Assembly (NCBI GenBank): GCA_902540805.1
Contig: CACBON010000002.1
Location: forward strand, 27,322-91,321
Reading direction: 5' to 3'
Length of the DNA: 64,000 nucleotides
Source: an uncultured Alphaproteobacteria bacterium
GTDB lineage: Bacteria; Pseudomonadota; Alphaproteobacteria; Methylaequorales; Methylaequoraceae
Part shown: positions 3,101-39,583 of the stretch, piece by piece
How the letters are laid out: every line of letters begins with the position of its first letter
Position numbering within the stretch: position 1 is the first letter of the stretch
Program-made: the position numbers and the translations under genes
Notes under the pieces: generated by a model
The model's database searches: none
What the model saw: only the letters and a program-made list of their open reading frames with translations
What the model was told of the DNA's origin: nothing

Positions 3101-3210
3101 TTAATTATACAAAAGAAGAAAAAAATATTTTCCAAAAATTGGAAGCCCTATATGAATGTGCAAGACGGGTTAGCAATGGAATCAATCACTTTATAGGATC
3201 TGTAGGTTAA
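136..3210 (+). CDS. ppc: phosphoenolpyruvate carboxylase (long, divergent)
   Basis: VLTAHPTF motif matches the PEPC VxTAHPTE signature. HGESIGRGGHP matches the FHGRGGxxGRGG lysine/glycine loop. Length 1024 aa. Confidence 0.7.
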   Translation: MINNYAINLNYIIFKEMTSINIRKLSHSEMDLYRKPLLPEKWSCFPVDRDIDTQQLRKILQKDLDKIRSGAEKDPFSNSITMLALDISRRLEKNRLNYSALEALIQRLAVGSFGLRADRLKSYIGKIDKKQNIEIIRKIIINLAFEEKKKLTFKEFNCKISKEIFGIVLTAHPTFGMTYNMMLELAKLATSKNNNKNLSDKELKGIVKEVFKTEQRPEKKITLDFEHSLSMSALKFLQASLRTFYEVIIDVSKKLFPDNYHRVTPQIFRLHTWVGYDVDGRGDIFWSDSFSKRLKVKVEQLDIYQQRVNKIIKLNKDKGCEIELSQIRNIISNALKTNSEALTKFTQKDFVNDLNSIKQVSNFLHKNKDKLLTNSLLILEKISAVLNYLVEKDSSKNNKTIYEILIFKIELSNFGLGLGRTQLRLNANQLNNAISKEIDLMGDPNDPSNKLTYLNIISRMIDNVKPVKINFGSIYEENMNARRYFMLTKQILKYIDENQSIRFLIAECDYPLTVMTALYFSKLFGVESKIDISPLFETEKGLEIGDDVIRTLLRNSNFKKYILARKKLTVQTGFSDAGRYLGQSAAVLSIENLQRKIAKAMHDLNITNVKLLIFNTHGESIGRGGHPVSLIDRLKYVNCNYTRKKLMDWKIDLIQEMSFQGGDGYQYFMNHDLAFAAISRIAEFCYNDSSVKSDALYDSVDFGIEFVNTIKNFNTEIMDDPNYAALLNVFGSNLTHSTGSRSVKRHIDSSIKTLVYHPSQTRAIPQNSILQQLGMLANSLGGVGRFIGKDQKKFVKIYNNSERFKRIMDIVQHAFAFSDIEVLKAYIDCFDPGMWLSWSTRTADSERSKNMKEVANLLEKFDVHWRLNKVYRGLHQEYMEIRNWILGRKLRGRIAVGRGRVIEKEIRDELLLMHGIRVAIFHEIFLLSVRIPKFSDQAGTSRDEVIAKLIRFDVFNAVEILRKIFPVGQAKTSNIGFSDKSNYVSEGNINYTKEEKNIFQKLEALYECARRVSNGINHFIGSVG

Positions 3211-5770: not shown

Positions 5771-6043
5771 ATGCATAGCACGAAGAACATTATTAAATTC
5801 CCAAATTTAATAAACCAAAAGAAAGAAAAAATGGTTAAAATTAGAGATGAAATTGAAAAAATTTTAACCAACTATGCCATTAATGAGAGAGATTTATGGG
5901 CTGTTTCACTTGCTGCTGGAAGATTTGCTTCAATCAATCTTGAAAAGTTGGATGGTGAAAAGCAGACAATTAATTTTTTTAAAAATTGTATTGAAACTCA
6001 AAAAAAGTTTGAACTAACCAGAAATCCTTCCAACATTCCCTGA
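5771..6043 (+). CDS. hypothetical small protein (possibly starting at the internal ATG at 5831)
   Basis: ORF only. The 3' end overlaps the convergent bactofilin gene by 30 nt. Confidence 0.2.
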   Translation: MHSTKNIIKFPNLINQKKEKMVKIRDEIEKILTNYAINERDLWAVSLAAGRFASINLEKLDGEKQTINFFKNCIETQKKFELTRNPSNIP

Positions 6044-6331
6044 AATTTGAGCTCCAGTATCAACGGAAAGCGAATTTGTTTTTAATTTACCGTCAATTAC
6101 ACCACTGTTAGAGACTTCTAGAAGGTCAGCTGTAATATCTCCATCAACCTTTCCCTCTACTTTTAAGTGTTCTGCATTTATGTTTCCATTGAAAAGTGCT
6201 GTGGATTCAATAATTACAGATCTAGCAACGATATTCCCTTTAAAATTTCCCGCTATAACAACTTGTCCTTCTTTCGACTCTAATTGTCCTTCCATGAGAA
6301 GACTTTTATTAATATAGGTTATATCACTCAT
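6014..6331 (-). CDS. bactofilin family protein (paralog 3)
   Basis: Beta-helical bactofilin (DUF583) periodicity: VIAGNFKGNIVARSVIIESTALFNGNINAEHLKVEGKVDGDITAD... Confidence 0.7.
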   Translation of the reverse strand: MSDITYINKSLLMEGQLESKEGQVVIAGNFKGNIVARSVIIESTALFNGNINAEHLKVEGKVDGDITADLLEVSNSGVIDGKLKTNSLSVDTGAQISGNVGRISG

Positions 6332-6333
6332 CT

Positions 6334-6687
6334 TTAATCCTCAGCGTGTTTATTATTTTTTAACTTATTTTCATCCCAGTTATGGATGATCTTACAGTTG
6401 AGTGCTGCACCTCTATCCATCTGAAGTGATTTATAATTAATTTCTCCAGTAATTACAGAAGAATCTGTAAGCCAAACAGAATCAGCTTTAATTTTACCTT
6501 GATAGTTTCCAGAAATTACAACTAACTCAGATATTATTGACCCTTCTAGTGAAGCATATCTTCCAAGTGTTACCTTATCAGATTTAATATCTGCTTCGAC
6601 TCTTCCATTAATTTCTATAGTTGATGCATTAGATATTTTGCCTTTAAATATCGCTCCTCTTCCTATGATTGATTGATTATCTGCCAT
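6334..6687 (-). CDS. bactofilin family protein (paralog 2)
   Basis: IGRGAIFKGKISNASTIEINGRVEADIKSDKVTLGRYASLEGSI... is a typical CcmA/BacA-like repeat pattern. Confidence 0.75.
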   Translation of the reverse strand: MADNQSIIGRGAIFKGKISNASTIEINGRVEADIKSDKVTLGRYASLEGSIISELVVISGNYQGKIKADSVWLTDSSVITGEINYKSLQMDRGAALNCKIIHNWDENKLKNNKHAED

Positions 6688-6689
6688 TA

Positions 6690-7112
6690 TTAAATACCTT
6701 TAGATTTTTTTGATGGTTTTTTTCTTTTTTCTTTCTCTAAACTTTTGTCTTCTATTCTTTTATCTAATCCACGGAAAAGCTGAATCTCTAAATTAGCACC
6801 TGGTCTTGCACTTAAACTATTGTAATACATATTACCTTTTATGTTAGCTGCAGATTCTATAGCTAATGATTCAGCAGTAACATCGCCCTCAAATTTACCT
6901 CCAATTATACATTCGAAAGCTTTTATATTACCTTTCTGATTTCCTTCAGCAGAAATATGAACATGTTCACATTCTATATTACCTTTAACAATTCCTTTAA
7001 GCACTAACTTTCCACTACATTTTATGTTACCGTTAATTTGCATTTCAGTACCAATTACACTAGAGGAAGTCGATGCTTTTTTTGGAGTTTTATCTGAGTT
7101 TCTAGAAAACAT
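6690..7112 (-). CDS. bactofilin family protein (paralog 1) with K-rich C-terminal tail
   Basis: MQINGNIKCSGKLVLKGIVKGNIECEHVHISAEGNQKGNIKAFECIIGGKFEGDVTAESLAIESAANIKGNMYY is the bactofilin repeat core. Confidence 0.75.
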   Translation of the reverse strand: MFSRNSDKTPKKASTSSSVIGTEMQINGNIKCSGKLVLKGIVKGNIECEHVHISAEGNQKGNIKAFECIIGGKFEGDVTAESLAIESAANIKGNMYYNSLSARPGANLEIQLFRGLDKRIEDKSLEKEKRKKPSKKSKGI

Positions 7113-7123
7113 ATTTCTATTTT

Positions 7124-7139
7124 TGCAATAATTTTGCCA
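7124..7139 (-). promoter_or_regulatory. sigma-54 (-24/-12) promoter candidate for the bactofilin operon
   Basis: Minus strand reads TGGCAA-AATTA-TTGCA. The -12 C is 12 nt upstream of ATG 7112, which implies a leaderless transcript. Confidence 0.55.
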
Positions 7140-7211: not shown

Positions 7212-7227
7212 TGGCTTACTAAATGCA
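7212..7227 (+). promoter_or_regulatory. sigma-54 promoter candidate for the K-rich protein / M23 peptidase operon
   Basis: TGGCTT-ACTAA-ATGCA. GG and GC are correctly spaced. The -12 element is weaker (ATGCA). It lies about 42 nt upstream of ATG 7269. Confidence 0.4.
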
Positions 7228-7815: not shown

Positions 7816-9195
7816 ATGGAAAATTTATCTAAAAAATTTTCTATGAATGTGCTTAAATTTAACATTCTGAAAAATCTAAAATCAAGTACAAGATTTGGCG
7901 AAACTAGTATCTTTTCCAAAAACTTAACTGTATTTTCAAAAAACCTTAGACTCATTCTCAAAGAAAGAAGATTTCTTTATTTTACAAAAAAAGGCCCCAT
8001 AGAAGTTGTATTCAACATTAAACATTATCTGTCAGCTATTGCAATTTTTCTGGTTTTAATCTTCAAAGTATTTCAACTTTTATTCTTTGGTGTTTCGTCT
8101 TTTTTTTCTTATATGATTTACAAAAATACAGTTATAAATGAGCAGAGCTTTACAGAATCCGAAATTAAAACGTTAAAAAGTATTGCAAAAGGTAAAAATA
8201 TATCGGAGCAAGAAATTAATTCTGAAAAAGCAGAAATAGTAATAAAACAAAAAGATGAATTTAACAACACAAATAATTATCAAAATGAATTACAAGATCA
8301 ATTAAGAGAAAAATTATTAAATTTAAAAAGTATGATGCGAAATATAAAGCTTAGCCTCCCAAATGACTTGAATTATTCAGATGAAATTAAATTTGAGCAA
8401 TTTTCTAAAATTGCGAGTCCTGAAATGGTTGCAATAGAACACGCCTTCGAAAACAAGTTTGATTTAACAAAACCATCAAAAGACCAAAAGGAATCATTTT
8501 CATATAAGAAACTGCCTGTTATACCGTTTGTTGCACCAAGAACAAAAAAACTGAAAATAATTAATTTTACTAAGAAAATTGATATTGAAATTTTACAACT
8601 TTTAAGTGTTTTTGAACAATTAAAACTTCAACCAGATAAACTTGATATTCATAGGATAAACGCCTTGCTTTCTGAAAATATAAATGTAAGTGAAGATAAC
8701 GAGGATTTGTTGGATCATACTTCGCTAAGGTTTCAAATCTTGCAAGATCTTAAAGATGCAATTATTTATGTGCCTTTAAAACCACCTATGCAATATTACT
8801 ATGTCTCTAGTCCCTACGGTGTCAGAGTTCATCCTAAAAGCAAAAGAAAACAAATGCATCATGGAATTGATATGGCTGGTACTTGGCAAGAAGAGGTTAG
8901 GGCACCTGCTGATGGATATGTTTCTTTTTCAGGAAGAAATGGGTCTTTTGGTAAAACAATCAAAATAATACATAAACATGGTGTGTCAACATTGTATGGA
9001 CATCTTCATCGATTGAATGTGAAAAAAGGAAAGAATGTTACAGAGGGCGAAGTAATTGGAAAAATGGGATCAACAGGAAGAGCTGTAGGTGCGCATCTTC
9101 ATTATGAAATAAAAGTCAATGGTAAATCAGTAAATCCATATGATTTTATTTCAGTGGGACGTGATCTGCTAAGCAGTTCAATAATTAAAAAATAA
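7816..9195 (+). CDS. M23/LytM family metallo-endopeptidase (membrane anchored, coiled-coil middle)
   Basis: C-terminal HHGIDMAG...GRAVGAHLHYEI carries the HxxxD and HxH motifs of peptidase M23. One N-terminal TM helix. Confidence 0.75.
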   Translation: MENLSKKFSMNVLKFNILKNLKSSTRFGETSIFSKNLTVFSKNLRLILKERRFLYFTKKGPIEVVFNIKHYLSAIAIFLVLIFKVFQLLFFGVSSFFSYMIYKNTVINEQSFTESEIKTLKSIAKGKNISEQEINSEKAEIVIKQKDEFNNTNNYQNELQDQLREKLLNLKSMMRNIKLSLPNDLNYSDEIKFEQFSKIASPEMVAIEHAFENKFDLTKPSKDQKESFSYKKLPVIPFVAPRTKKLKIINFTKKIDIEILQLLSVFEQLKLQPDKLDIHRINALLSENINVSEDNEDLLDHTSLRFQILQDLKDAIIYVPLKPPMQYYYVSSPYGVRVHPKSKRKQMHHGIDMAGTWQEEVRAPADGYVSFSGRNGSFGKTIKIIHKHGVSTLYGHLHRLNVKKGKNVTEGEVIGKMGSTGRAVGAHLHYEIKVNGKSVNPYDFISVGRDLLSSSIIKK

Positions 9196-9204
9196 AGTAA
9201 AGTT

Positions 9205-9220
9205 TGGCACTTAAATTGCT
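9205..9220 (+). promoter_or_regulatory. sigma-54 promoter (consensus-perfect) for the SLT-domain gene
   Basis: TGGCAC-TTAAA-TTGCT. The -12 C is 12-13 nt before ATG 9232, which implies a leaderless transcript. Confidence 0.6.
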
Positions 9221-9231
9221 GAATAAAATGC

Positions 9232-9834
9232 ATGAGATTATTTTTGGCCGTTTTATTATGCTTTTTAATATTTACATTTCTTGAATCAAAAGAATTAGAT
9301 AATTGTAACTATTTAACTGAAAAGTACGGAAAAATTTATAATCTTCCCAATAAATTATTAACTTCTATCGCACTTGTAGAATCTGGGATCAAAAAGAACG
9401 AATTTAAATCATGGCCATGGACACTAAATGTTTCTGGAAAATCAATGTATTTTGATAATAAATTAGAAACCTTAGAATATTTAAAAAGTAATATAAGATT
9501 AAAAAAAAGTATCGACGTCGGTTGCATGCAAATTAATACAAGATACCACTTGAAAAATTTTAAAGATTTGTCTCATTTAGTCGAGCCCGAAGAAAATGTT
9601 AAGTATGCTGCAATTTATCTTCGTAAACTTTATAATAAACATAAATCGTGGAACGAAGCGGTTTCAAGATATCATTCATCAATTCCAAAACGAAAGAAAA
9701 ATTATCTTAAAAAAGTTCATACATATTGGAATGATTTAAGACAACAGAAAATAGTTATTAATAATTATACCAGCCATGATGAAGCAGAAAAAATAAAATT
9801 TTTTAGAGAAATACTAAATAAAGAAAATATTTAA
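9232..9834 (+). CDS. lytic transglycosylase (SLT domain) with signal peptide
   Basis: SIALVESGIKKNE (catalytic ES), VGCMQIN and AAIYLRKLY motifs of family-1 SLT domains. N-terminal signal peptide. Confidence 0.65.
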   Translation: MRLFLAVLLCFLIFTFLESKELDNCNYLTEKYGKIYNLPNKLLTSIALVESGIKKNEFKSWPWTLNVSGKSMYFDNKLETLEYLKSNIRLKKSIDVGCMQINTRYHLKNFKDLSHLVEPEENVKYAAIYLRKLYNKHKSWNEAVSRYHSSIPKRKKNYLKKVHTYWNDLRQQKIVINNYTSHDEAEKIKFFREILNKENI

Positions 9835-9839
9835 GATTT

Positions 9840-9855
9840 TGGCAAAGTATTTGCA
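9840..9855 (+). promoter_or_regulatory. sigma-54 promoter candidate for a small ORF
   Basis: TGGCAA-AGTAT-TTGCA. The -12 C is 12 nt upstream of ATG 9866. Confidence 0.55.
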
Positions 9856-10148: not shown

Positions 10149-11609
10149 CTACATATTCATACTTTGAATTTTCATAATTTTTCTTCTAACTGAGGAGGCT
10201 GGTATATTGAGTAACTCCCTGTATTTTGCTACTGTTCTTCTAGCTAAATCAATTCCTTCATCTTGGAGTTTTTCTACTAACATTTCGTCACTCAATGGAC
10301 TGTGTACTGGTTCACTACTAATTAATTTTTTTAGAGATTCTCTTACTGATTCTGCTGAATGAGTTTCACCTTTCTTAGTACTACTTATAGAGGCACTAAA
10401 AAATAGTTTCATTTCAAAAACACCTCTTGGTGTTAGCATCAATTTATCTGATGTAACTCTACTGACTGTGCTTTCATGCATATTTATTTTTTTTGCTACA
10501 TCCTTAAGAACCATTGGTTTAAGATACTTTTTTCCCTTTTCAAAAAATTCCTTTTGTTGGTTAACAATTTCTGAGCTTATTTTCAGTGTTGTTACATTTC
10601 TTTGTTGAATTGCTTTGAGTAACCATCTTGCAGAATTTAAAGATTCATTAATAAACTTTTTATCTGATTCTCCACACTGAAGTCTCTCTATTTCTTTCAC
10701 GTAATCTTCGTTAATATTAATTTTTGGAAGTGTGCTATGATTTAATTCCACAGCCCAGTCAGAATTATTTTTTGTTACAATTACATCTGGATGAAAAATA
10801 TTGTCATTATCTATAGAATACTTACTCCCAGGTTTTGGGTTTAGAGCTCTTATAAGCCTTATTTCTTCTTTCAGTTTTTCCTCTGTTAATCCTGTAAGTT
10901 TTTGGAGACCTTTAATATTTCCACTTCCAAGTAGTTCAATATTATCAATAAGAATCTCTTTTTTTGAATCACAGTTGTTTTCGTTTATAAGTTGAATTTT
11001 TAGGCACTCTTTCAAATTTCTAGCAAATACACCATTAGGCTCAAAAGATTGCATTCTTTCTAGAACTTTTTCAATTTTATTTAATTTAAATCCACTAAAC
11101 TCTTCGATAGTTTCCAATTTTTCTGTAATCCAACCATTTTCATCAATGTAATCAATTAATATTTTTGCAATATTCTTATCTTCATCATCCTCAAATTCAA
11201 GATCTGCTTGATTATTCAAAATGGATTTTAAAGAAACTTTGTTGCTAAGTGTTTGTTCAATTACACTTCCAACGTCAACACTTTCCGTTGATGAATGCCT
11301 ACTGTTAAATTCAAAAGTCGCATCGCAATCCCACCTATTTTCAAAATCATTATTATGGGGTTCATCTGCAATAGATTCGCCATTTTTGAAAGATTCGTCT
11401 AATTCATCAGTTTTTTCTATGTCTTGATTTTCTTTATTATCTAGTTCTTCGCTCTCATTTTCCAAAAATGGATTCTCTTCCATCTCTTTATTCACTAAAT
11501 TTGTTAATTCTAAATTATTTAGCTGAAGCAATTTAATTGCTTGTTGTAACTGAGGAGTCATAACTAAAGATTGACTCTGTTTTAATTTAAGATTCTGTGA
11601 AATTTGCAT
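10149..11609 (-). CDS. rpoN: RNA polymerase sigma-54 factor
   Basis: Region I is Q/L-rich (MTPQLQQAIKLLQLNNLEL). C-terminal RpoN box ARRTVAKYRE. Confidence 0.85.
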   Translation of the reverse strand: MQISQNLKLKQSQSLVMTPQLQQAIKLLQLNNLELTNLVNKEMEENPFLENESEELDNKENQDIEKTDELDESFKNGESIADEPHNNDFENRWDCDATFEFNSRHSSTESVDVGSVIEQTLSNKVSLKSILNNQADLEFEDDEDKNIAKILIDYIDENGWITEKLETIEEFSGFKLNKIEKVLERMQSFEPNGVFARNLKECLKIQLINENNCDSKKEILIDNIELLGSGNIKGLQKLTGLTEEKLKEEIRLIRALNPKPGSKYSIDNDNIFHPDVIVTKNNSDWAVELNHSTLPKININEDYVKEIERLQCGESDKKFINESLNSARWLLKAIQQRNVTTLKISSEIVNQQKEFFEKGKKYLKPMVLKDVAKKINMHESTVSRVTSDKLMLTPRGVFEMKLFFSASISSTKKGETHSAESVRESLKKLISSEPVHSPLSDEMLVEKLQDEGIDLARRTVAKYRELLNIPASSVRRKIMKIQSMNM

Positions 11610-12377: not shown

Positions 12378-12574
12378 AAAATTGTAGAATATGTTCTTTC
12401 ATAAGATATTTTTTAGGTTTTGTTCTGTTATTGATTATTATTTCGCTGACTTTTAAAGACAATCTAGGTTATCTTTCGTTTGTAACACCATGGAATGCAG
12501 CAATATTAATATTTGGTGTGGGTTGTTGTCTATTTTTATTTAAATTAATTGAGTATTTAAATCAGAAAGATTAA
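12374..12574 (+). CDS. small two-TM membrane protein
   Basis: ORF with two hydrophobic helices. Overlaps the upstream stop by 4 nt. Confidence 0.25.
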   Translation: MKNCRICSFIRYFLGFVLLLIIISLTFKDNLGYLSFVTPWNAAILIFGVGCCLFLFKLIEYLNQKD

Positions 12575-13047
12575 CGATCTTTTACAAATCTTACAAATAA
12601 TTCTTTCTCAGGTACAAACCTTCCATAAGAATGCCCCGTAAAGAAGTTTACTGACCAAAAAAACTTAGGTGACCACCAATTTCTTTGAGAAGTCCAGAAA
12701 GGTTCAGCCGGTGTATTAGGAAAAAAAGTTTTATTTATCTTTGCTCCCTCGCATTTTTTACAAATTAAACTTTCAAGCTCTTTTCTAGAGGGCAATCTCC
12801 ATTCACCTTCAATTTGTTCATTAAGTAAATTATTAGCCTCTTCTGCAGATTTTAAATCCAATTTAACTGCAGTTCCAAGACATTCTTGTTTGTTGTCGCT
12901 CCATTGTTGACCTGTTGTACATTTTAACCATTCAAGTTTATTTTTTAAATCTATAACGTAATATCCTTTGTCTATGAAGTTAGATGCAAAGACATTATTA
13001 CTAAAAAATAATAGGAAAAAACATATAAAAAGTTGCTTTTTAATCAT
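12571..13047 (-). CDS. DUF1566 (Lcl C-terminal domain) secreted protein
   Basis: Signal peptide. WLKCTTGQQWSD...WRLPSRKELESL matches the DUF1566 pattern. Confidence 0.5.
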   Translation of the reverse strand: MIKKQLFICFFLLFFSNNVFASNFIDKGYYVIDLKNKLEWLKCTTGQQWSDNKQECLGTAVKLDLKSAEEANNLLNEQIEGEWRLPSRKELESLICKKCEGAKINKTFFPNTPAEPFWTSQRNWWSPKFFWSVNFFTGHSYGRFVPEKELFVRFVKDR

Positions 13048-13096: not shown

Positions 13097-13112
13097 TGGT
13101 ATTAAAGTTGCA
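13097..13112 (+). promoter_or_regulatory. sigma-54 promoter candidate for motAB, inside a 28-bp palindrome
   Basis: TGGTAT-TAAAG-TTGCA. It sits in the inverted repeat tggtat...atacca (13097-13124), 51 nt upstream of ATG 13163. Confidence 0.45.
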
Positions 13113-13162: not shown

Positions 13163-13936
13163 ATGGATTTAGCTACAATAATTGGTTTTCTTGGTACAAT
13201 TGGCATGATTGCTGGCGCAATGATTTCAGCTGGAGGCTTGGGGTCATACATTGATGTCCCTTCAATTTTAATAGTTTTTGGTGGTTCTTTTTTTGCTGTA
13301 ATGTATACGGCACCCTTACCAGTTTATCTTGGTTCTTTCGGAGCTTTTGGTAAAGCTTTTAAACCACCTGTAAAAAAAATGGACGAACTTATTGAAAGAA
13401 TAGTAGAGCTAGCAGGTATTGCAAGAAAAGATGGAATGATGGCATTAGAAGGGCAAGAAACCCCAGATCCATTTTTTGACAACGGTCTTCAAATGCTAGT
13501 AGACGGAGCAGATGAATCAAAACTTACCGTACAATTAAAAAAAGAACTAAAGGCAATGCAAGGTCGACATGAAAAAAATATTGGGTGTGCCCAATCTTGG
13601 GTAGATATAGCACCTGCAATGGGAATGATTGGAACTTTGGTTGGATTGGTTGCGATGCTTGGTAATATGGCAGATCCTAAAGCAATAGGTCCTGCAATGG
13701 CCGTTGCTCTTTTGACTACACTTTACGGGGCTATGATAGCAAATACTATTTTTATGCCGATAGTAATAAAATTAAAAGGCTACTCAGCCTACGAAACAAC
13801 CTACAGAGAAATGATCATTACAGGTTTACAATTTATTTCCAGAGGAGAGAGTCCAAGAAATATTCAGGATCAACTTGTTGCGAATCTTCCACCTAAAGAA
13901 AAGCAAAAACTCCTGGAAGCTGCAGCTGGAGGTTAA
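13163..13936 (+). CDS. motA: flagellar stator protein MotA/PomA
   Basis: MotA/TolQ/ExbB family with 4 TM helices (GTLVGLVAMLGNMADPKAIGPAMAVALLTTLYG). Immediately upstream of motB. Confidence 0.75.
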   Translation: MDLATIIGFLGTIGMIAGAMISAGGLGSYIDVPSILIVFGGSFFAVMYTAPLPVYLGSFGAFGKAFKPPVKKMDELIERIVELAGIARKDGMMALEGQETPDPFFDNGLQMLVDGADESKLTVQLKKELKAMQGRHEKNIGCAQSWVDIAPAMGMIGTLVGLVAMLGNMADPKAIGPAMAVALLTTLYGAMIANTIFMPIVIKLKGYSAYETTYREMIITGLQFISRGESPRNIQDQLVANLPPKEKQKLLEAAAGG

Positions 13937-13946
13937 TGTTTGAATC

Positions 13947-15131
13947 ATGGCTGAGGAAAAAACCGAAAATCAACAGACATCTAATGAAGAAGAGGAGCAT
14001 GAATGTCCTGAATGCCCTCCAAAAGGAGCACCTGCTTGGATGGCAACTTTTGCCGACATGGCAACACTGTTGATGGCTTTTTTTGTTTTAATCCTATCTT
14101 TCGCAGAATTTAACGTCCCAAAATTTAAACAAATAAGTGGAAGTATGAAGAATGCTTTTGGAATACAAAGAGTTATTCCAGTTGTTGAACCACCTAAAGG
14201 AACAACAATATTATCTTTAAACTTCAGTCCGAACCCGACTCCAGCAGTTCAAGAAAATTTAAAACAACAAACAACAGAGACTGATCAACCTAAAGTAGAA
14301 CTTCAAACTAAGAACGAAGATAATACTAAGGATGATGGTGAAACTGAGGACGCGAAAGAACTTGCCAAAAATATTCAGGAAGCTATTGCAAGAGGTGATA
14401 TAACCGTCGAAGCATTAGGGAGTAAAGTTGTTGTTAACTTTACACCAACAGAAGCTGACGAGAAAGAACTACCGCAACTACTTCAAGAGACTTTAAATGC
14501 TGTGGAATCTGTAAAGGCTGCATCAGGAAAATCAGATTCTGAAATTTTAATTGGTGGCTTAGAAAAACAACTCGCTGATCTTGCAACAGCATCTTCTCAA
14601 AAAGGTAAAAATGAGGCTGAAGGAGAAGATGGAGAAAGTGTAGGTCAATCTGAACAAAGCCAATCAGCTAAAGAGGAGGCTAAAAAAGCAGAGTTGGCTG
14701 AGGACAAATTAAAAATTGCACTTAAACAAGAAATTGGGGAAGGTCTTGTAAATGTTGATAGAGAGGACGACAAAGTGATAATAACTGTTGGGTCTGCTGG
14801 TGCGTTCAAGTCAGGATCTGCTGAACTTACCAACAAGGCAAGACAGATAATGTCTAAAATAGCAGAACAAAATAAAAAAGGTAGAAGTGAGATATTAGTT
14901 ATGGGTCATACGGACAATGTGCCACTTACATTTGGGTCAAATTATAGAGACAATTGGGATCTCGCAGCAGCAAGATCTGCCTCAGTGGTACAACAATTAT
15001 CAAGAAATGATACTCTCGACCCAAAAAGAATGAAGGCGATTAGTTACGGAGAGACAAGACCAGTAGAGTCAAATGATACCTCTCAGGGAAGAGCCAAAAA
15101 TAGAAGAATCGAAATTGAGATAAATTATTAA
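13947..15131 (+). CDS. motB: flagellar stator protein MotB with long acidic linker
   Basis: N-terminal TM helix with the conserved Asp region (ATFADMATLLMAFFVLIL). C-terminal OmpA-like peptidoglycan-binding domain (MGHTDNVPL...NRRIEIEI). Confidence 0.75.
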   Translation: MAEEKTENQQTSNEEEEHECPECPPKGAPAWMATFADMATLLMAFFVLILSFAEFNVPKFKQISGSMKNAFGIQRVIPVVEPPKGTTILSLNFSPNPTPAVQENLKQQTTETDQPKVELQTKNEDNTKDDGETEDAKELAKNIQEAIARGDITVEALGSKVVVNFTPTEADEKELPQLLQETLNAVESVKAASGKSDSEILIGGLEKQLADLATASSQKGKNEAEGEDGESVGQSEQSQSAKEEAKKAELAEDKLKIALKQEIGEGLVNVDREDDKVIITVGSAGAFKSGSAELTNKARQIMSKIAEQNKKGRSEILVMGHTDNVPLTFGSNYRDNWDLAAARSASVVQQLSRNDTLDPKRMKAISYGETRPVESNDTSQGRAKNRRIEIEINY

Positions 15132-15132
15132 G

Positions 15133-16056
15133 ATGAAAATAGAAAATAGTCCATTTCATATTTCTAAAAATAAGGTTTCCCCTGTAAAAGAAAATAAAGG
15201 GCCTAAAAATCAACAACTATTCAATGATAAGAAGGTTAATAAACCCGAAAAAGACGATTTTTCTTTTTGGGATTGGTTTAGAGGGTTGGTCAACCCTTTC
15301 CAAAATCTTCCAATTATAAGTGGAATTTATTCAAGCATTAATTCTGATGATAGTAAATCCGATAGAGACTTAATTCAAAATAGTCTTGGTGGTTTTATGT
15401 ACGGTGGTCCTATTGGCGCGATTGCAGGTTTTGGGAATTGGGTTTTTAATAAAATATTTGACAAAACGCCGTCAGAACTAGCGCTTGATGTTTCAGGAAT
15501 AAGCAATCTTTGGAAAGACAATAAGAACAAAGAGAGTCAGATTGCAGAAAATAATAAAATAGATGATGACAAAAATTCTTCTGTGGTTTTTTCTAATAAA
15601 AATACTTACGGAGAATGGTGGAAAGGCAACCAAAAATCTAGTACTAAAAATTATGTAGCATCTGGCAAAAATAATTTTGAAAAAACTAACCTCCCCAACT
15701 TCAAAAATGTAGGTATCGAAAATAAAAATAATGCTATCGAAAGAAATATTAATAAATATTCGACCAAACCAGTTGTTTTGGAAAATAAACAAAATATTAC
15801 TTTGGCTTTTGATGGAAAGTCTGAGTTAGTAAAAATAAATAATCAAATCTCTGGGTCGATAGATAACAAAAATGAAAATAAAAAGTCCAAAAAAGAAAAA
15901 TTTGGAGAAATCAATTTTAACTATCCGAATTGGAGTCCCAGATCTTTTGAAGTTGACAAAAATAAAAATGAATTGAAAAGCAAAGACTTAATTAATAAGA
16001 AATATATGGATCTTAAAAATGGAAATATTGGAGCAAACTTAAATTTGAAACTTTAA
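15133..16056 (+). CDS. N/K-rich low-complexity protein of unknown function
   Basis: The ORF starts 2 nt after the motB stop. Confidence 0.3.
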   Translation: MKIENSPFHISKNKVSPVKENKGPKNQQLFNDKKVNKPEKDDFSFWDWFRGLVNPFQNLPIISGIYSSINSDDSKSDRDLIQNSLGGFMYGGPIGAIAGFGNWVFNKIFDKTPSELALDVSGISNLWKDNKNKESQIAENNKIDDDKNSSVVFSNKNTYGEWWKGNQKSSTKNYVASGKNNFEKTNLPNFKNVGIENKNNAIERNINKYSTKPVVLENKQNITLAFDGKSELVKINNQISGSIDNKNENKKSKKEKFGEINFNYPNWSPRSFEVDKNKNELKSKDLINKKYMDLKNGNIGANLNLKL

Positions 16057-16656
16057 TCACTCGTATTCAAGTTCTTCGTTTTTATATTTTTCAAAATATT
16101 CGTTACCAAGAATTTCTTTTATCTTCTCAATTGTAAGATCGTTAACTTTAGACGAGTATAACTCGTGCATTTCAGAACATTTTCTAGAAACTGCGTTTGC
16201 AACCCCTTGAGATATAAAATCATTTTCAAGTGCTGTTCTTGCTCTTGTGGTTGCCTCTGATTTAGCCTTTGTAAGCCTAGCTAAACCTGAATTTTTTTTT
16301 CTATTTAAATCGTCGACAACTTCCATCAGTTGTTTATAGCCTGGTTCTGGTAGGTCAATGTTAATGAATTGCCCATCAACTTCGTAATTAAACTCTACTT
16401 CGTCAATTTTTTCAGTTAAAAGGGGAATATGATCTGTATTAAATACTAAGATTTGCACTACATTTTCATTTTCTGTTTTTTTTATATCTCCTACATCAAC
16501 TAATCTTCTTGGCTTACCCTGAATGTTGATCCGGATACCTTTTAGTGTACTTAAGTTTGCATCTGCTGATTTTATTTCTTGAATTACTTCTGTATAATCT
16601 TCAATTGCTGCTTTCATTAAAGTTTCTGCTTGTATTGTATATTTATCTGCAACCAT
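16057..16656 (-). CDS. ribosome-recycling-factor-like protein (divergent paralog)
   Basis: By eye the hydrophobic/charge pattern tracks RRF: LKGIRINIQGKPRRLVDV vs LDGIVVEYYGTPTPLRQLA; ILVFNTDHIPLLTEKI vs INVFDRSMSPAVEKAI; INIDLPEP vs IRVPLPPLTEE. Roughly 20% identity at most. Confidence 0.35.
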   Translation of the reverse strand: MVADKYTIQAETLMKAAIEDYTEVIQEIKSADANLSTLKGIRINIQGKPRRLVDVGDIKKTENENVVQILVFNTDHIPLLTEKIDEVEFNYEVDGQFINIDLPEPGYKQLMEVVDDLNRKKNSGLARLTKAKSEATTRARTALENDFISQGVANAVSRKCSEMHELYSSKVNDLTIEKIKEILGNEYFEKYKNEELEYE

Positions 16657-16665
16657 AAGATGATT

Positions 16666-17466
16666 TTATACTATTACGGTTTGATTTTCATCAACAATGT
16701 TTTGTTTATTACTGTTATTTTTATTAACATTGTCTTCTTTTTTATCTTTTTCAACCTCTTCAACAAGTGGTTTTGGTAGTTTTGAAAACTTAAATTTTGA
16801 CTTTGGGTCTAACTTTCTAATGGTTTTTTGAGCCTCATCAATTGATTTAGACAAAATTTTTATACAAAAGACTTTTCCTTCCAGCATTGAAAAACTGTAA
16901 AGAAGATTTAATTGGGCTTTGTAACAGTAAATTGAAGTAAGTAACCATCCAAGAAAAAAAATATAAATATTGACTGATATTGATATTGCCATAATTGCTG
17001 TAAACAGAAGTAAAACCCACCATTTTTGCGAATAAGCTAACCAGAATGGAGGGAAAATACCTGCTGAAAGTGAGTTTGCATTTTCGATCACCTCATAGTT
17101 TCTGTAAACGTCTCTCATCCCAATAAATTCCTTTAGTTCATCAAGATCATTTATTTTATGCGTTAAGTAATCAGATTTTATTTTACTGGTTTCCTCAGCT
17201 GTAGTCGTAATAAATTTGCAACCTAAACTATTTTCTACTAATAAATTAAAAAATGTATCGTCTCTCAGAACTGTGAGCATAGATTTTTGACTATTTTTTT
17301 TTAACTCCTTTAAATCAGCGGTAAACTGTTTTTCACCAAAAGTATAGATTTGGTTATCTAGTGCAACGATTATATCATCAGGCTTCAAAAAGTTGTTTGC
17401 AGCGTGACTTCCACTATTTATTTTATTAATTTTTAAGAGAAAGTTTCCTTCTTGCTTTTCAGACAT
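16666..17466 (-). CDS. membrane protein with PDZ-like N-terminus
   Basis: GSHAANNFLKPDDIIVALDNQ resembles the PDZ ligand-binding loop. Two central TM helices. K/N-rich tail. Confidence 0.3.
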   Translation of the reverse strand: MSEKQEGNFLLKINKINSGSHAANNFLKPDDIIVALDNQIYTFGEKQFTADLKELKKNSQKSMLTVLRDDTFFNLLVENSLGCKFITTTAEETSKIKSDYLTHKINDLDELKEFIGMRDVYRNYEVIENANSLSAGIFPPFWLAYSQKWWVLLLFTAIMAISISVNIYIFFLGWLLTSIYCYKAQLNLLYSFSMLEGKVFCIKILSKSIDEAQKTIRKLDPKSKFKFSKLPKPLVEEVEKDKKEDNVNKNNSNKQNIVDENQTVIV

Positions 17467-17473
17467 TGTTTTG

Positions 17474-18199
17474 TTACGGGAAAGTTATACTTTCTTTTTG
17501 ATCAGTTATTTCTTTAACTAATTGCTTGTTTTGGCTGGAAATCGCTTCAAGTGCCGCATTCAATGATGATGTGCTATTAGAAAGTTCTTTAAGAAGTTTT
17601 ACGTTCTGGTTCTTTTTATTATCTTTCAATAGTTTTCCAATCTCTTTGTTAACACTTGCAGATGTAACAACTCCTGACTCTTGAATTGACTTATTCAGCT
17701 TATCAGCTTCATTTTTAATTGATTTAGAAAGCCCTGATGATAAATTTGTAATTTCTTTTGATAAATTAACCATTAGTTTTTTATCATTCGAATTAATTGC
17801 ACTTGAAAGCTCTTCAATTTTAACTTTCATCTCTTCACTGGCATTTAATAAATCAGTATGTCTAGCTAAACTTTGATTCATGTTATCTACTGCTTTATTA
17901 ACATTTTCGACATTTTCAGCAAAAACAACCAAAGCTTCTCTACTAGTGCTTGTCATGTCTTCTAGTTCAGAAAGTGACTTAAAATATAGAAGTCCAGTTA
18001 AAAGAATTGCTACAATAGCAGTGGCAATTGAACTTGAAAAAATGATTGTTGTATATTTGTGAATTTCTTTCATTTTTTGCTCCGTCTTTAAGTATTCGTT
18101 TTTAATTCTTTTGTATTCTGAAGTCACATCGGTGGCTGCGTCAGCAGCATCCAAAGCTATTTTAATGCTTTCCTGCATTGCATTAAGTTGTTGAGTCAT
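17474..18199 (-). CDS. single-pass membrane coiled-coil protein
   Basis: One TM helix (residues about 50-72) followed by about 170 aa of S/N/K/L heptad-like sequence. No MCP signalling core. Confidence 0.3.
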   Translation of the reverse strand: MTQQLNAMQESIKIALDAADAATDVTSEYKRIKNEYLKTEQKMKEIHKYTTIIFSSSIATAIVAILLTGLLYFKSLSELEDMTSTSREALVVFAENVENVNKAVDNMNQSLARHTDLLNASEEMKVKIEELSSAINSNDKKLMVNLSKEITNLSSGLSKSIKNEADKLNKSIQESGVVTSASVNKEIGKLLKDNKKNQNVKLLKELSNSTSSLNAALEAISSQNKQLVKEITDQKESITFP

Positions 18200-18396
18200 G
18201 CAATTCTTCCTTTATTTAGTATTTTAACACTTTTTTGTTTTTTTTGAAATAGTGCACAATCTGTGCCAGAAACTTTCTTTATTTCTAAATATGGGTTATT
18301 TTTTGAAATTATACCAAATGCTTTACAACCATATGGAAAGTTTTTCTTATAGGTCACATAAAAATGCGAGCAGTTATTACAGTTATTTTGATTCAT
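18196..18396 (-). CDS. small Cys4 (putative zinc-ribbon) protein
   Basis: CNNC ... C(24) ... C(47) spacing. Overlaps its neighbours by 4 nt on each side. Confidence 0.3.
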   Translation of the reverse strand: MNQNNCNNCSHFYVTYKKNFPYGCKAFGIISKNNPYLEIKKVSGTDCALFQKKQKSVKILNKGRIA

Positions 18397-18625
18397 TTTT
18401 CATTAGATCTCTTATTTTATAATATAGTTTTGCAATTTGGAATCTCAACGCACCACAAAAAGAAGTTAAAGCACAAAACCAAAGAAATAAAGCAAGAAGA
18501 AAATTTTTCTCTTCGAATACTTCAATGGCTTTGAAGTGACATATTAATGAGCTATAAAAAAAAGCAAGAGTAACAATTAGTTGTGAAATGTTTCTATTGA
18601 TCATTTTTTCTTCCGAACTCGTCAA
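18383..18625 (-). CDS. small two-TM protein
   Basis: ORF overlapping the flhB 3' end by 32 nt. Two hydrophobic helices. Confidence 0.2.
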   Translation of the reverse strand: MTSSEEKMINRNISQLIVTLAFFYSSLICHFKAIEVFEEKNFLLALFLWFCALTSFCGALRFQIAKLYYKIRDLMKNESK

Positions 18626-19745
18626 AAATCATATCTTCAGGTATCTCTATCTCTGGTTTCTCAATTTCTTCTCCATTATCTATTTTATAAATATATGCTA
18701 AGGCAATAGCAACAGCATTATAGAGTTTACTCATGATTTCATCACCAATTTCGGATGTATAGTATATTGCTCTTGCCAGTTTAGGACTTTGCATGGTACC
18801 AATTTTAAGTTCTTTTCCTTTCTTAATTATGGATTCAGCAATTTTACCCCTTCCTTTGGATATAATTATAGGAGCTTTTGCGTCCCCAACTTCATATTTA
18901 AGAGCTACAGCAAAGTGTGTTGGGTTTGTAATTATTGCAGTAGCTTCTTCAAGGTTATCAACAGACGACGCTTCTTTTCTACTTTTTGTTGCAGCTTCGG
19001 CTTGAAGTTTTCTTATTTTTTGTTTGACTTCAGGTTGTCCGTCAGTCTCTTTGTATTCGTCTTTGAGGTCTTGATGAGACATTCTAAGTTGCTTAATATA
19101 ATCATACTTTTGGTAAACTACATCTATAAAAGCTATAAATGCGAGAACGACAAGGAGATAAGCAATTATTTCTGGAAAAAAAGAAAAAAGTCTATTTACT
19201 GCGGAAAAAATATTAGCGGTTGTTAAATTGACTAAATCAGATAAATTATTTTCAATCAAAAAGAAAGCTACTAGACCAAGAAGACTGACTTTTAATATAG
19301 CCTTTACTAATTCTACTAATCCCTTAAGTGAAAATATTCTTTTTAATCCTTTAATTGGATTCATTTTCTCAAACTTCCAGTAAATTGATTTTATGGAGAA
19401 GTTTATTCCACCAATTAAAAACTGCGTTAGTACACTTACTACCAATAGTGGTATTGAAAAAATTAAAAATACTTGAATGAAAAATTTTACAACTACAGCA
19501 ACAGATTCAAGTGGAGACTTTCCAGAGGCTAATTCTGGACCAAAGGAAAATAGAGATTTACAAATTTTTAAAAAATCGTCTAAAAGCATTGGTGCAAGAT
19601 AAAATAGTAATACTCCCATGAACATTGAACTGAAAACAAAAGCTTCTTTGGAAGACAGAACTTTCCCATCCTCTTTTGCTTTTTCAAGCCTTCGGGCTGT
19701 AGGTTCCTGGGTTTTTTCTTGACTTTCGTCTTTATCTTCCGCCAT
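18594..19745 (-). CDS. flhB: flagellar export apparatus protein FlhB
   Basis: Four TM helices. NPTH autocleavage motif (AIITNPTHFAVALKY). Confidence 0.85.
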   Translation of the reverse strand: MAEDKDESQEKTQEPTARRLEKAKEDGKVLSSKEAFVFSSMFMGVLLFYLAPMLLDDFLKICKSLFSFGPELASGKSPLESVAVVVKFFIQVFLIFSIPLLVVSVLTQFLIGGINFSIKSIYWKFEKMNPIKGLKRIFSLKGLVELVKAILKVSLLGLVAFFLIENNLSDLVNLTTANIFSAVNRLFSFFPEIIAYLLVVLAFIAFIDVVYQKYDYIKQLRMSHQDLKDEYKETDGQPEVKQKIRKLQAEAATKSRKEASSVDNLEEATAIITNPTHFAVALKYEVGDAKAPIIISKGRGKIAESIIKKGKELKIGTMQSPKLARAIYYTSEIGDEIMSKLYNAVAIALAYIYKIDNGEEIEKPEIEIPEDMIFDEFGRKNDQ

Positions 19746-21961: not shown

Positions 21962-21977
21962 TGCAAAAACCTTGCCG
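21962..21977 (-). promoter_or_regulatory. sigma-54 promoter candidate for fliO-P-Q-R-flhB and the downstream unknown genes
   Basis: Minus strand reads CGGCAA-GGTTT-TTGCA. The -12 C is 12 nt upstream of about 21951. The RBS-equipped ATG is at 21928. Confidence 0.5.
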
Positions 21978-23458: not shown

Positions 23459-24091
23459 CTATTGTACTACAAATGAGGTAAAATGTACATTCTCGATTCC
23501 ACCAAACCCTTCAACTTTTACAAGAACCTCATTAATTCCATCTCTCAATGATTCAGCTAAATTATTTTTACCCTCTTTACCGGCAATATCTTCAGAAGAA
23601 AATTCGGACATGATAGTTAATATTTCTGATCTCAGAGCAAGCTGATGACTCTCCACATTTACCATTACTTGTTCGTCATATTGAGTTGAAACTCCAACTG
23701 AGAGTTGTAGAAACTTTTTTGATCCCTTTAAGTTGGCTGTAAAATTGCCAGGAAATTCATAATACGTTGTTGTAAAGATTTCTTCGTCAGGTGTAATCTT
23801 TGGAATCTTCTTTGGGCCTGCAGGACAATTACCTTCTTCATCTTTTTCTTCTTCAGCGCATTCAGCTGCAGCCTCATCAATATTTTCTTCATCTTCATTT
23901 TTTGATGGTTCAGGATTGTCTTTTTTTTCAATAATCTGAGATATTTCAGTTGATGGGTCTGTCTCCTCTCCACCGCCTACAAAAATTCCAACTCCAATAC
24001 CTGTTCCTAGAAGAACTATGCCACCTACAATCATCAAAATTAATTTTAAGGGTGACTTCTTTTCATTTTCTTGATTATTCTCTTCTGCCAT
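23459..24091 (-). CDS. fliL: flagellar basal-body-associated protein FliL
   Basis: Single N-terminal TM helix and a periplasmic domain. Located upstream of fliM. Confidence 0.7.
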   Translation of the reverse strand: MAEENNQENEKKSPLKLILMIVGGIVLLGTGIGVGIFVGGGEETDPSTEISQIIEKKDNPEPSKNEDEENIDEAAAECAEEEKDEEGNCPAGPKKIPKITPDEEIFTTTYYEFPGNFTANLKGSKKFLQLSVGVSTQYDEQVMVNVESHQLALRSEILTIMSEFSSEDIAGKEGKNNLAESLRDGINEVLVKVEGFGGIENVHFTSFVVQ

Positions 24092-31268: not shown

Positions 31269-32426
31269 TTAAGCTTGCATCAATTTTTTTTCTGACAAAT
31301 TTTCTTGAATGTTATTATAAAAATTACTTTCTTTCGAAACATCTATCATTATGTCTTTATCTTCAATTATATTTCTTTCAGAGAGAACTATAGCTCTTTG
31401 CAGAACATTTTCCAACTCTCTAACATTTCCGGGCCAACTATACTCTCTTAATATTTTTTGAGCATCTTTGTTGATGTAAGGTAGGGCGCTTTTTTCTGTG
31501 TGTCTATTCAATAAAGCTATACTAATTGGCAAAATATCATCAGGTCTTTCAGATAAATTATGTGTTTCTATTGGGAACACATTAAGTCTGTAATATAAAT
31601 CCTCTCTGAATTTTTTATCTTTTACTTCGTTTAACATATCTCTATTAGTTGTTGCAATTACTCGAACATTAACATCAATATCTCGTTGTCCGCCAATCGG
31701 TGTAACTTTTTTTTCTTGGAGAACTCTAAGAAGCTTAGCTTGAAGGGACAAAGGCATTTCAGATACTTCATCAAGAAGTAATGTTCCATTATCAGCAGCT
31801 CGAAAAATTCCTTTATTCGCAGAGGAAGCTCCTGTAAAAGCTCCTTTTTCATGTCCAAATAACATTGCTTCAAGCATATTTTCTGGTATCGCAGCACAAT
31901 TTATTGCAATAAAAGGTTTTTCATGTCTATCCGACTTTTTATGAATAAGATTGGAAATAACTTCTTTTCCAGTTCCAGTCGGTCCATGAATAAACACTGT
32001 AACATCTGTTTTTGAAACCTTTTCAACCATATTAATTAAAGAAAGTGTTTTCTTATCTGAGAAACTATACTTTTCCTTAGATATAATCTGAAAAATAATT
32101 TCTTTTATAACCTCATCCATAATCTGGAAAGAAATTTGAATATAAGCTCCGCCCATTTCTTTTTTTAAGTCATAACTACTATCATTTTCTGAATCCAAAA
32201 CTATTAATTTTGTAGAACCTATATTTCTAGCAATTTTAAGAATGTTTGATTGACCACCTTGTTGGTTTTCGAATTTTTTATCGATAATCAATGTGGATTG
32301 AGAACTTTTAATTTCACTGATCTCATCAGAATCAATTAATTTGATTTCCTTTCCTTTTTTACTAAAAAAATCATTTATATCATTGTGTACTTCAAAACAA
32401 TCTTTAATAATAAATATTTCCTTCAT
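31269..32426 (-). CDS. sigma-54-dependent activator lacking a DNA-binding domain (FlgR/FleT-like); start set to ATG 32426
   Basis: Degenerate receiver-like N-terminus. AAA+ core with GPTGTGKE and GAFTGA. About 40 aa follow GNVREL and contain no Fis-type HTH. The track ORF starts at TTG 32453. Confidence 0.8.
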   Translation of the reverse strand: MKEIFIIKDCFEVHNDINDFFSKKGKEIKLIDSDEISEIKSSQSTLIIDKKFENQQGGQSNILKIARNIGSTKLIVLDSENDSSYDLKKEMGGAYIQISFQIMDEVIKEIIFQIISKEKYSFSDKKTLSLINMVEKVSKTDVTVFIHGPTGTGKEVISNLIHKKSDRHEKPFIAINCAAIPENMLEAMLFGHEKGAFTGASSANKGIFRAADNGTLLLDEVSEMPLSLQAKLLRVLQEKKVTPIGGQRDIDVNVRVIATTNRDMLNEVKDKKFREDLYYRLNVFPIETHNLSERPDDILPISIALLNRHTEKSALPYINKDAQKILREYSWPGNVRELENVLQRAIVLSERNIIEDKDIMIDVSKESNFYNNIQENLSEKKLMQA

Positions 32427-32459
32427 ACTTAAATCCTTTATTTTCGTTTTCAATCTAAA

Positions 32460-39303: not shown

Positions 39304-39583
39304 ATTTTTATCTTATTTTATTTTATTTTTATCAAGTAATTTGTATGCAGATCAAGATAAAACTATAAACATAATAGTTGAAAATTGTAAATCTTGCCAT
39401 AACCTCAATATAGAAGTTACAAAAAAAATTCCAGATCTAAATAATTTAGAAAAAGAAGAATTTATTAGATTAATGACGAAATATAAAAATGATAAGGATA
39501 ATAGTGTAATGAACAGGATTTCTAGAGTCTTAACAGAAAATGATATTTTAAAAATGGCGGACAAAATATATGGTAAAAGATAG
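39296..39583 (+). CDS. monoheme c-type cytochrome (FccA-like small subunit)
   Basis: Signal peptide. Single CKSCH heme-binding motif. Overlaps the flavoprotein gene by 14 nt. Confidence 0.5.
   Translation: MSKFLSYFILFLSSNLYADQDKTINIIVENCKSCHNLNIEVTKKIPDLNNLEKEEFIRLMTKYKNDKDNSVMNRISRVLTENDILKMADKIYGKR

Follow-up and report, generated by a model that had tools for sequence, protein, structure and literature searches.

The window analysed here is a stretch of 64,000 nucleotides (64 kb; GC content about 30%) from contig CACBON010000002.1 of an uncultured alphaproteobacterium, and the genes in question are five that follow the flagellar export gene flhB on the minus strand, here called t1 to t5. 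The first four, t1-t4, are a conserved module that stands behind flhB in more than 100 marine flagellar gene clusters ranging from 26 to 64% GC. The tail as a whole is probably an accessory module of a sigma-54-dependent flagellar cluster of the type known as Fla1 in Rhodobacter (Cereibacter) sphaeroides; it would be divided into two transcription units, with t3 as the counterpart of the motor protein MotF and t5 as an add-on with the fold of the ribosome recycling factor (RRF). New here are the breadth of the t3 family, its constant partners t1, t2 and t4, a putative promoter embedded in t2, and an RRF-like gene beside motor genes. The features concerned are the following (aa, amino acids; nt, nucleotides).

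18594..19745, minus strand: flhB, export-gate switch protein (Pfam Bac_export_2, E=3e-101; TIGR00328, 345.7 bits)
18383..18604, minus strand: t1, 73-aa inner-membrane protein with two hydrophobic helices (alternative TTG start at 18625)
18196..18396, minus strand: t2, 66-aa basic Cys4 protein; the 3' half of the gene carries the t3 promoter motif and ribosome-binding site
17474..18199, minus strand: t3, 241-aa bitopic protein, predicted to be a probable MotF-family stator-activating protein
16666..17466, minus strand: t4, 266 aa, with an N-terminal cytoplasmic PDZ-fold domain, a hydrophobic helical hairpin at about 149-183, a small alpha/beta domain and a disordered basic tail
16057..16656, minus strand: t5, 199-aa acidic cytoplasmic RRF-fold protein, lineage-restricted last gene of the t3 unit
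21962..21977, minus strand: sigma-54-type motif CGGCAAGGTTTTTGCA upstream of fliO, likely promoter of fliOPQR-flhB-t1-t2 from its sequence and conservation
18253..18268, minus strand: sigma-54-type motif TGGCACAGATTGTGCA inside t2, 69 nt before the t3 ATG, matching 10 of 11 consensus positions

Five genes behind flhB

The five open reading frames (ORFs) are intact (18383-18625, 18196-18396, 17474-18199, 16666-17466 and 16057-16656), exactly where a preliminary description of this DNA had placed five unannotated genes. The start of t1 is more likely the ATG at 18604 than the TTG at 18625, which shortens the protein from the 80 aa first given to 73; gene callers pick the ATG on contig CACEFO010000009.1 (assembly GCA_902558875.1), which has 100% protein identity to the window for all genes compared. 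The junctions had been described as gapless, with overlaps of 4 to 32 nt. From the ATG start, flhB and t1 overlap by 11 nt, t1 and t2 by 14 nt, and t2 and t3 by 4 nt (ATGA, behind a strong AAGGAAG ribosome-binding site), but t3 and t4 are separated by 7 nt and t4 and t5 by 9 nt. The stop codon of t5 abuts that of a convergent 307-aa gene, with 0 intergenic bases. No terminator-like site was found in 16057-18625, and sigma-70-like hits in the tail region are at or below chance (32, vs. 38.4 +/- 6.1 in shuffled sequences).

A scan of the clade with one genome per species returned 29 loci, titled uncultured Alphaproteobacteria. A gammaproteobacterial origin of the window, suggested at first by its lptD-surA-pdxA-rsmA gene order, was rejected, since the related records all carry the labels Alphaproteobacteria, Rickettsiales or Pelagibacteraceae. 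The order fliPQR-flhB-t1-t2-t3-t4-t5 is found in 29 out of 29, and all five ORFs are intact in 27 of the 29 species-level genomes. Pairwise ratios of nonsynonymous to synonymous substitution (dN/dS) are 0.09-0.34 for t1, 0.08-0.5 for t2, 0.01-0.05 for t3, 0.05-0.13 for t4 and 0.01-0.07 for t5, with 0.02-0.09 for flhB. All five tail genes are real and under purifying selection. Within the clade t3 is more conserved (74-100% identity, the frameshift-affected locus L030 left out) than FlhB itself (58-99%). Linkage inside the clade alone proves little, because the whole 20-kb neighbourhood is syntenic there, non-flagellar genes included.

The t1-t4 module outside the clade

A profile search with t3 over 1.84 billion cluster representatives, with clusters counted at 50% identity, placed 253 clusters in the family, 146 of them with E<=1e-10. 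A metagenome scan yielded 80 further loci, 62 outside the window's clade (26-57% GC) and 18 within it. Among the assessable loci of those 62, flhB lies upstream in 35 out of 35, t1 is present in 50 out of 50 and t2 in 55 out of 55, and t4 is found downstream of t3 in all 40. The linkage to flagellar loci in relatives that the preliminary description had asked for thus holds for t1-t4. Six contigs of 46-62% GC inspected singly (L034-L039) share the order fliK-L-M-N-O-P-Q-R-flhB-t1-t2-t3-t4; these distant contigs encode a two-helix protein of 71-81 aa, a Cys4 protein of about 70 aa (often uncalled), a t3 of 249-286 aa and a t4 of 263-283 aa. The genes beyond t4 vary among them and may be a convergent motB-pomA, a cyclic nucleotide monophosphate (cNMP)-binding-like pair with rpoN, or rpoN alone. 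The sole variant of the module, a high-GC group (59-64% GC), has flhB-t1, an opposite-strand gene and then t3-t4, with t2 missing. In one further contig flagellin, SLT and sigma-54 activator genes come before t3. The five-gene tail expected beside flhB in relatives is therefore conserved as t1-t4, in all assessable loci apart from t2 in the high-GC group, while t5 is lineage-restricted. Among 72,556 plasmids, tblastn searches found no match to t3, to t5 or to two distant homologs of t3.

Two sets of neighbouring genes recur near the module. The opposite-strand gene of the high-GC group, 173-194 aa long, conserved and without a Pfam hit, takes the place held by t2 in other lineages, between t1 and the t3 promoter motif (minus strand; L033 656-1219, L040 3026-3610, L041 2654-3175). 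The pair of small cNMP-binding-like genes stands behind t4 in L034 (6694-7394), L038 (9690-10417), L110, L113 and L116, and near rpoN in L037 (14515-15212, minus strand), which hints at a cyclic-nucleotide input to this flagellar system.

A cluster of the Fla1 type

The tail closes a long run of flagellar genes. On the minus strand these are, in order, a sigma-54 activator without a helix-turn-helix (HTH) domain, fliE, fliF, fliG, fliH, fliI and probable fliJ, followed by fliK, fliL, fliM, fliN, probable fliO, fliP, fliQ, fliR and flhB. Associated features in the window are given below.

31269-32453, minus strand: sigma-54 activator without HTH domain, first gene of fliEFGHIJ
32618-33682, divergent from the first activator: second sigma-54 activator, HTH_8
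23459-24091: fliL (Pfam FliL)
10149-11609: rpoN
13163..16056, plus strand: convergent stator unit, comprising pomA (13163-13936), a motB-like gene (13947-15131) and the 307-aa gene (15133-16056)

The Fla1 system of R. sphaeroides is sigma-54-dependent and follows a FleQ/FleT scheme, in which an activator without DNA-binding domain heads fliEFGHIJ (PMC7277832). FleT is mirrored by the HTH-less activator of the window, also the first gene of fliEFGHIJ, and FleQ by the HTH_8 activator, which has no receiver domain. From this activator layout, the gene order and rpoN, the window cluster is of the R. sphaeroides Fla1 type. In R. sphaeroides, RSP_0052 to RSP_0065 are fliE to fliR and RSP_0066 is flhB; the next gene, RSP_0067, encodes a hypothetical protein co-regulated with motility genes, and flhA is RSP_0034, far from flhB (PMC9779115).

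The preliminary description had placed the tail where flhA would be expected, with flhA, flhF and flhG missing. No FlhA (FHIPEP), FlhF (SRP-type GTPase) or FlhG (MinD-like ATPase) domain was found in window ORFs of at least 100 aa, and none matches the five tail proteins, so the missing genes are indeed not behind flhB. The expectation itself does not hold, however: the lack of flhA after flhB is normal because the cluster is of the Fla1 type, in which flhA is distant from flhB too. Polar clusters of the Vibrio/Pseudomonas type run fliE-R, flhB, flhA, flhF, flhG, fliA. They resemble the window in fliE-to-flhB order, sigma-54 control and a PomA-like stator, and differ in that the window has the t1-t4 module behind flhB and not flhA-flhF-flhG.

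Sigma-54-type motifs

The consensus tested was TGGCAC-N5-TTGCA, with GG and GC elements ten bases apart, RpoN and an enhancer-binding protein being required in the genome. Matches to TGG-N9-TGC number 32 in the window, vs. 10.3 +/- 2.9 expected, with several placed a short way ahead of genes such as fliK, pomA and the first activator; that of the stator unit is at 13097-13111. The fliO motif at 21977, from which the preliminary description had the entire tail transcribed, is present and occurs at the same offset in 27 of 27 clade loci covering the site.

The motif inside t2 is found in all clade loci covering its site. It coincides with the t2 codons Ser-Gly-Thr-Asp-Cys-Ala. Throughout the clade the Ser codon ends in T and the Gly codon is GGC, while the other Gly codon of t2 drifts between GGT, GGA and GGC; the synonymous rate (dS) of t2 is depressed. 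The same pattern extends over genomes of 26-62% GC, where the Ser/Thr and Gly codons of the motif have T and GG+pyrimidine preserved at their synonymous sites. TGG[CT]A[CT]-N5-TGTGC stands 53-99 nt upstream of t3 in 71 of 75 metagenome loci. In the four loci without t2, a motif of this type is intergenic, 50-69 nt before t3, and reads TGGCACGATCTCTGCA, TGGCACGATTGCTGCA or TGGCA[CT]GGATTCTGCA. Because the motif persists in intergenic DNA where t2 is missing, promoter constraint can be separated from protein constraint. From this conservation a promoter is predicted, and t3 probably heads a sigma-54-dependent unit of its own. The idea that t2 is promoter DNA only and encodes no protein was rejected, because more than 100 loci retain the ORF together with its four Cys. 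A sigma-54 promoter embedded in t2 and kept at 26-62% GC would be a clean natural case of joint coding and regulatory constraint.

Resemblance of t3 to MotF

As first described, t3 is predicted to be a single-pass protein (26.6 kDa), with one transmembrane (TM) segment at about 52-73, basic residues before it and helical structure otherwise. Family members have masses of 25.6-28 kDa, those of the high-GC group being 25.6-26.8 kDa with the TM segment at 51-76. Full-length members (237-311 aa) have one common architecture, in which 'SIKIALDAADxAT' marks a cytoplasmic helix and the single TM helix is followed by a juxtamembrane motif 'TSxEALVxFAENV', a helical stretch that varies, in many cases a Pro/Ala/Lys-rich linker, and an invariant C-terminal x-[FY]-P. 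The AlphaFold2 model of t3 (mean pLDDT 81, pTM 0.28) has one helix at 2-175, a break and a second helix at 184-235. Helix geometry gives the approximately 100 helical residues past the TM segment a length of about 15 nm, and the model is that of an extended, presumably oligomerising protein. A profile search of PDB sequences returned compositional helical hits (apolipoproteins, designed bundles), which were discarded, and the cluster names of ten distant t3 homologs are all 'hypothetical protein' or uninformative automatic labels.

MotF has a mass of 24 kDa, a TM segment at residues 54-74 and a large periplasmic C-terminus. Its presence at the motor depends on FliL, MotA/B and FlgT, it is dispensable when the MotB plug is mutated, and in R. 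sphaeroides loss of FliL or of MotF is suppressed by the same MotB plug mutations (PMC7277832). Compared with this description, t3 is similar in size, TM position and periplasmic C-terminus. RSP_0067, which we take to be motF, lies directly behind flhB, and t3 is parted from flhB only by t1 and t2. MotF is reportedly 239 aa long, and motF is said to head a unit with two hypothetical genes; t3 is preceded by a conserved sigma-54-type motif and always followed by t4, and may have a comparable layout. Judged by size, topology, gene position and predicted operon layout, t3 is thus a probable member of the MotF type. Whereas MotF has been described as restricted to some Rhodobacteraceae (PMC7277832), the hosts of the 253 clusters of t3 (50% identity) are, where named, uncultured Alphaproteobacteria or 'Pseudomonadota' of 26-64% GC; neither the predicted t2-embedded promoter nor the partners t1, t2 and t4 figure in the MotF papers available. 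FliL shares with t3 an N-in single-pass topology and a periplasmic domain. However, t3 has no FliL or SPFH-like domain, is predicted to form an extended helix, and coexists with a separate fliL in the window.

MotF and FliL are among the few stator-activating factors known, MotF having so far been regarded as peculiar to Rhodobacteraceae. Should t3 be MotF, the family comprises at least 253 clusters at 50% identity across abundant marine bacteria, and t1, t2 and t4 are then direct candidates for what is still missing in stator activation, testable in R. sphaeroides.

These results bear on the interpretation given in the preliminary description, in which all five genes were new components of export, regulation or assembly, transcribed together from the fliO sigma-54 promoter and occupying the place of flhA-flhF-flhG. 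Tight packing, the lack of a terminator-like site between flhB and the tail, the conserved fliO motif and the overlaps of t1 and t2 with the genes upstream all agree with it. Yet flhA is not beside flhB in Fla1-type clusters, t3 fits a motor (stator) factor and not an export component, and t5 is not part of the conserved module (see below). The single transcript is probably wrong as well, because nearly all loci have a conserved sigma-54-type motif ahead of t3, which persists where t2 is lost: behind flhB no terminator was found, but a separate promoter is predicted. Taken as a whole, that interpretation is unlikely. The observation from which it started is confirmed and the interpretation partly supported, in that t1-t4 are unannotated and flagellar-linked in relatives, while t3 fits the known MotF (by description) and t5 falls outside the module.

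The t1, t2 and t4 proteins

Besides the 50 assessable loci outside the clade, in each of which its homolog is directly behind flhB, t1 is also found in the high-GC group. The two hydrophobic helices first noticed in it are borne out, R54 is invariant in a GALRFQIA motif, and no Pfam or NCBIfam family matches. In t2 the four Cys (C6, C9, C24 and C47) are invariant, in agreement with the Cys4 protein first described, and the protein is predicted to be probably zinc-binding. No Pfam, NCBIfam or PDB family matches t2; zinc-finger hits in a profile search of PDB sequences were insignificant (E=0.19 and above) and were discarded.

The PDZ-like character and membrane helices ascribed to t4 were recovered as a PDZ fold and a hydrophobic hairpin, although hits at the sequence level fall below threshold: the Pfam family DUF2628 scores 20.8 against a gathering score of 23, and PDZ families give only weak NCBIfam/Pfam hits, with orthologs behaving likewise. 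In contrast to the PDZ domains of the site-2 protease RseP/MucP and of GRASP, that of t4 is not accompanied by a protease domain, is predicted to be cytoplasmic and is fused to a membrane hairpin; here too sequence-level hits are sub-threshold.

The RRF-like gene t5

The RRF-like nature first proposed for t5 is upheld: the Pfam family RRF (PF01765) scores 47.0 bits against a gathering score of 29.7, aligning residues 25-183 with profile positions 5-164 of 164, and the best PDB relative is the Aquifex RRF 1ge9 (E=5e-8, full length). By its position, t5 does not belong to the widely conserved module. Same-strand t5 behind t4 is confined to the window's clade, where 18 metagenome loci and 29 genomes show it, and L037, from a lineage that shares the t4, motB-pomA, Lcl_C gene and rpoN order, lacks both t5 and the 307-aa gene. 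A different low-GC lineage has an RRF-like gene on the opposite strand, convergent with t4 and 33 nt after motB, as the last gene of the stator operon (L105; E=4e-40 with the t5 hidden Markov model (HMM), 32.1 bits with Pfam RRF); L098 is similar, and L064 has a weaker RRF-like relative behind t4. The coordinates of these genes, which are on the opposite strand to t4, are as follows.

L105 1562-2254, minus strand: RRF-like gene
L098 2868-3428, minus strand: RRF-like gene
L064 3864-4403, minus strand: RRF-like gene

When the t5 HMM was iterated, the remaining loci yielded no more RRF-like ORFs, and their minus-strand ORFs behind t4 encode unrelated enzymes.

It is quite improbable that t5 is the organism's own frr, fast-evolving and relocated, with no specific flagellar connection. 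A full-length Pfam match above threshold, best PDB hits that are RRFs, some public annotations as ribosome recycling factor and very strong conservation would fit such a gene. However, t5 scores 32.3 bits with the frr equivalog model TIGR00496, far under the cutoff of 149.1, and is 26% identical to E. coli Frr over just 96 residues, the E. coli sequence used being an approximate one. In E. coli Frr the ribosome-binding arginines of domain I are presumably R129, R132 and R133; the profile alignment to Aquifex RRF, weak in this part, puts T129, K132 and S133 of t5 at these positions, thus Thr and Ser in place of Arg129 and Arg133. The gene stands beside stator and MotF-like genes and not in a housekeeping context, it is missing at the junction in the synteny-sharing lineage of L037, as an accessory gene would be, and it recurs beside motB in another lineage. 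No canonical frr was found in the DNA scanned, which consists of flagellar neighbourhoods only. From its scores and distribution, t5 is rather to be classed as a lineage-restricted, divergent homolog of RRF. A functional link between t5 and the motor is argued because of its two different attachments to motor operons, a matter of neighbourhood. A literature search for RRF paralogs linked to flagella yielded nothing usable.

The 307-aa gene convergent with t5 (15133-16056, plus strand), directly behind motB, has no Pfam or NCBIfam hit and is confined to the window's clade, where alignment with the more distant members is limited to its N-terminal approximately 130-160 residues.

Proposed arrangement and its weak points

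In the arrangement favoured here, an accessory module of a Fla1-type cluster, the first unit would bring t1 and t2, translationally coupled to flhB, under the fliO promoter at 21977, and the second would consist of t3-t4-t5, read from the predicted sigma-54 promoter at 18268-18253. The t3 protein would have a one-TM anchor, a very conserved cytoplasmic helix and a periplasmic helix of about 100 residues (about 15 nm, probably an oligomeric coiled coil); by analogy with MotF it might act with FliL in releasing the PomB/MotB stator plug and in keeping stators at the motor. The t4 protein is probably the membrane-anchored cytoplasmic partner of t3, its PDZ domain serving some peptide ligand, and t5 would have been added in a few low-GC lineages at the junction of the t3 unit and the stator operon, where it would be co-expressed with motor genes.

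Several points weigh against this arrangement. The match of t3 to MotF is one of description (size, topology, position), and the identity of RSP_0067 as motF, the 239-aa length and the unit layout are presumed. As the search for terminators found none, transcription from the fliO promoter is likely to run on into t3-t5 as well. The t2 motif coincides with an invariant Gly and Cys-Ala of the protein, and since it overlaps invariant residues, protein and promoter constraint are confounded in t2-bearing loci; what separates them is only the four loci without t2 and the synonymous-site pattern. The 80 metagenome loci were retrieved by their t3 pattern, and they show the companions of t3 and not the frequency of flhB without the module. 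The link of t5 to motility is drawn from neighbourhood in three lineages of compact genomes, and most lineages that carry the module are without t5 at this locus. The PDZ ligand of t4 and any contact between t3 and t4 are conjecture.

A more far-reaching proposal starts from the finding that, depending on the lineage, the RRF-like gene is at the end of the MotF-like operon or of the pomA-motB operon. An RRF-fold protein in the motor regulon might couple the state of translation to the stator or motor, or might be a non-ribosomal reuse of the tRNA-like shape; t1, t2 and t4 would be core Fla1 components not recognised before, and the PDZ domain of t4 would join t3 in a transmembrane stator-control complex. 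These ideas, taken together, are tentative and on balance doubtful. If they hold, motility would be linked to a translation factor in a new way, through an RRF paralog tied to motor genes.

That the tail consists of unrelated housekeeping genes brought beside flhB by streamlining and by a gene order frozen in the clade is very improbable: the 20-kb synteny including non-flagellar genes and the short intergenic spacers throughout would be expected under it, as would, for t5, patchy presence and the varying genes behind t4 between lineages, but t1-t4 stay behind flhB at 26-64% GC on contigs with differing other neighbours, t3 also adjoins flagellin, SLT and sigma-54 activator genes, and through its sigma-54 motif t3 is tied to a regulon of which the members visible in the window are flagellar.

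Other features of the window and related loci

Between pomA and rpoN lies a gene for a small Lcl_C-domain protein (12571-13047, minus strand). It occupies the pomA-rpoN position also in L037, L066, L068, L086, L119 and L121 (38-57% GC), and this kept position suggests a further, unrecognised motor-associated gene.

Three tandem bactofilin genes (6014-6331, 6334-6687 and 6690-7112, within 6014-7139, minus strand) are preceded by the sigma-54-like motif TGGCAAAATTATTGC at 7125-7139 and may belong to the flagellar sigma-54 regulon. The segment 7212-9854 (plus strand) holds a 180-aa gene of unknown nature, an M23 peptidase gene (7816-9195) and an SLT transglycosylase gene (9232-9834), with sigma-54-like motifs upstream of these genes at 7212-7226 and 9205-9219; one more, at 9840-9854, stands in front of a small ORF. 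A possible counterpart of the SLT transglycosylase in R. sphaeroides is SltF, a flagellar muramidase.

A flavocytochrome c sulfide dehydrogenase-like gene is found at 39570-40868 (plus strand), and a SoxYZ fusion adjoins the module in a related low-GC lineage (L107 7588-8373, minus strand); the motile marine bacteria concerned may oxidise reduced sulfur. A 1024-aa ORF at 136-3210 (plus strand) has a weak partial match to phosphoenolpyruvate carboxylase (66.9 bits, residues 150-628), and the gene order lptD-surA-pdxA-rsmA also occurs in the window.

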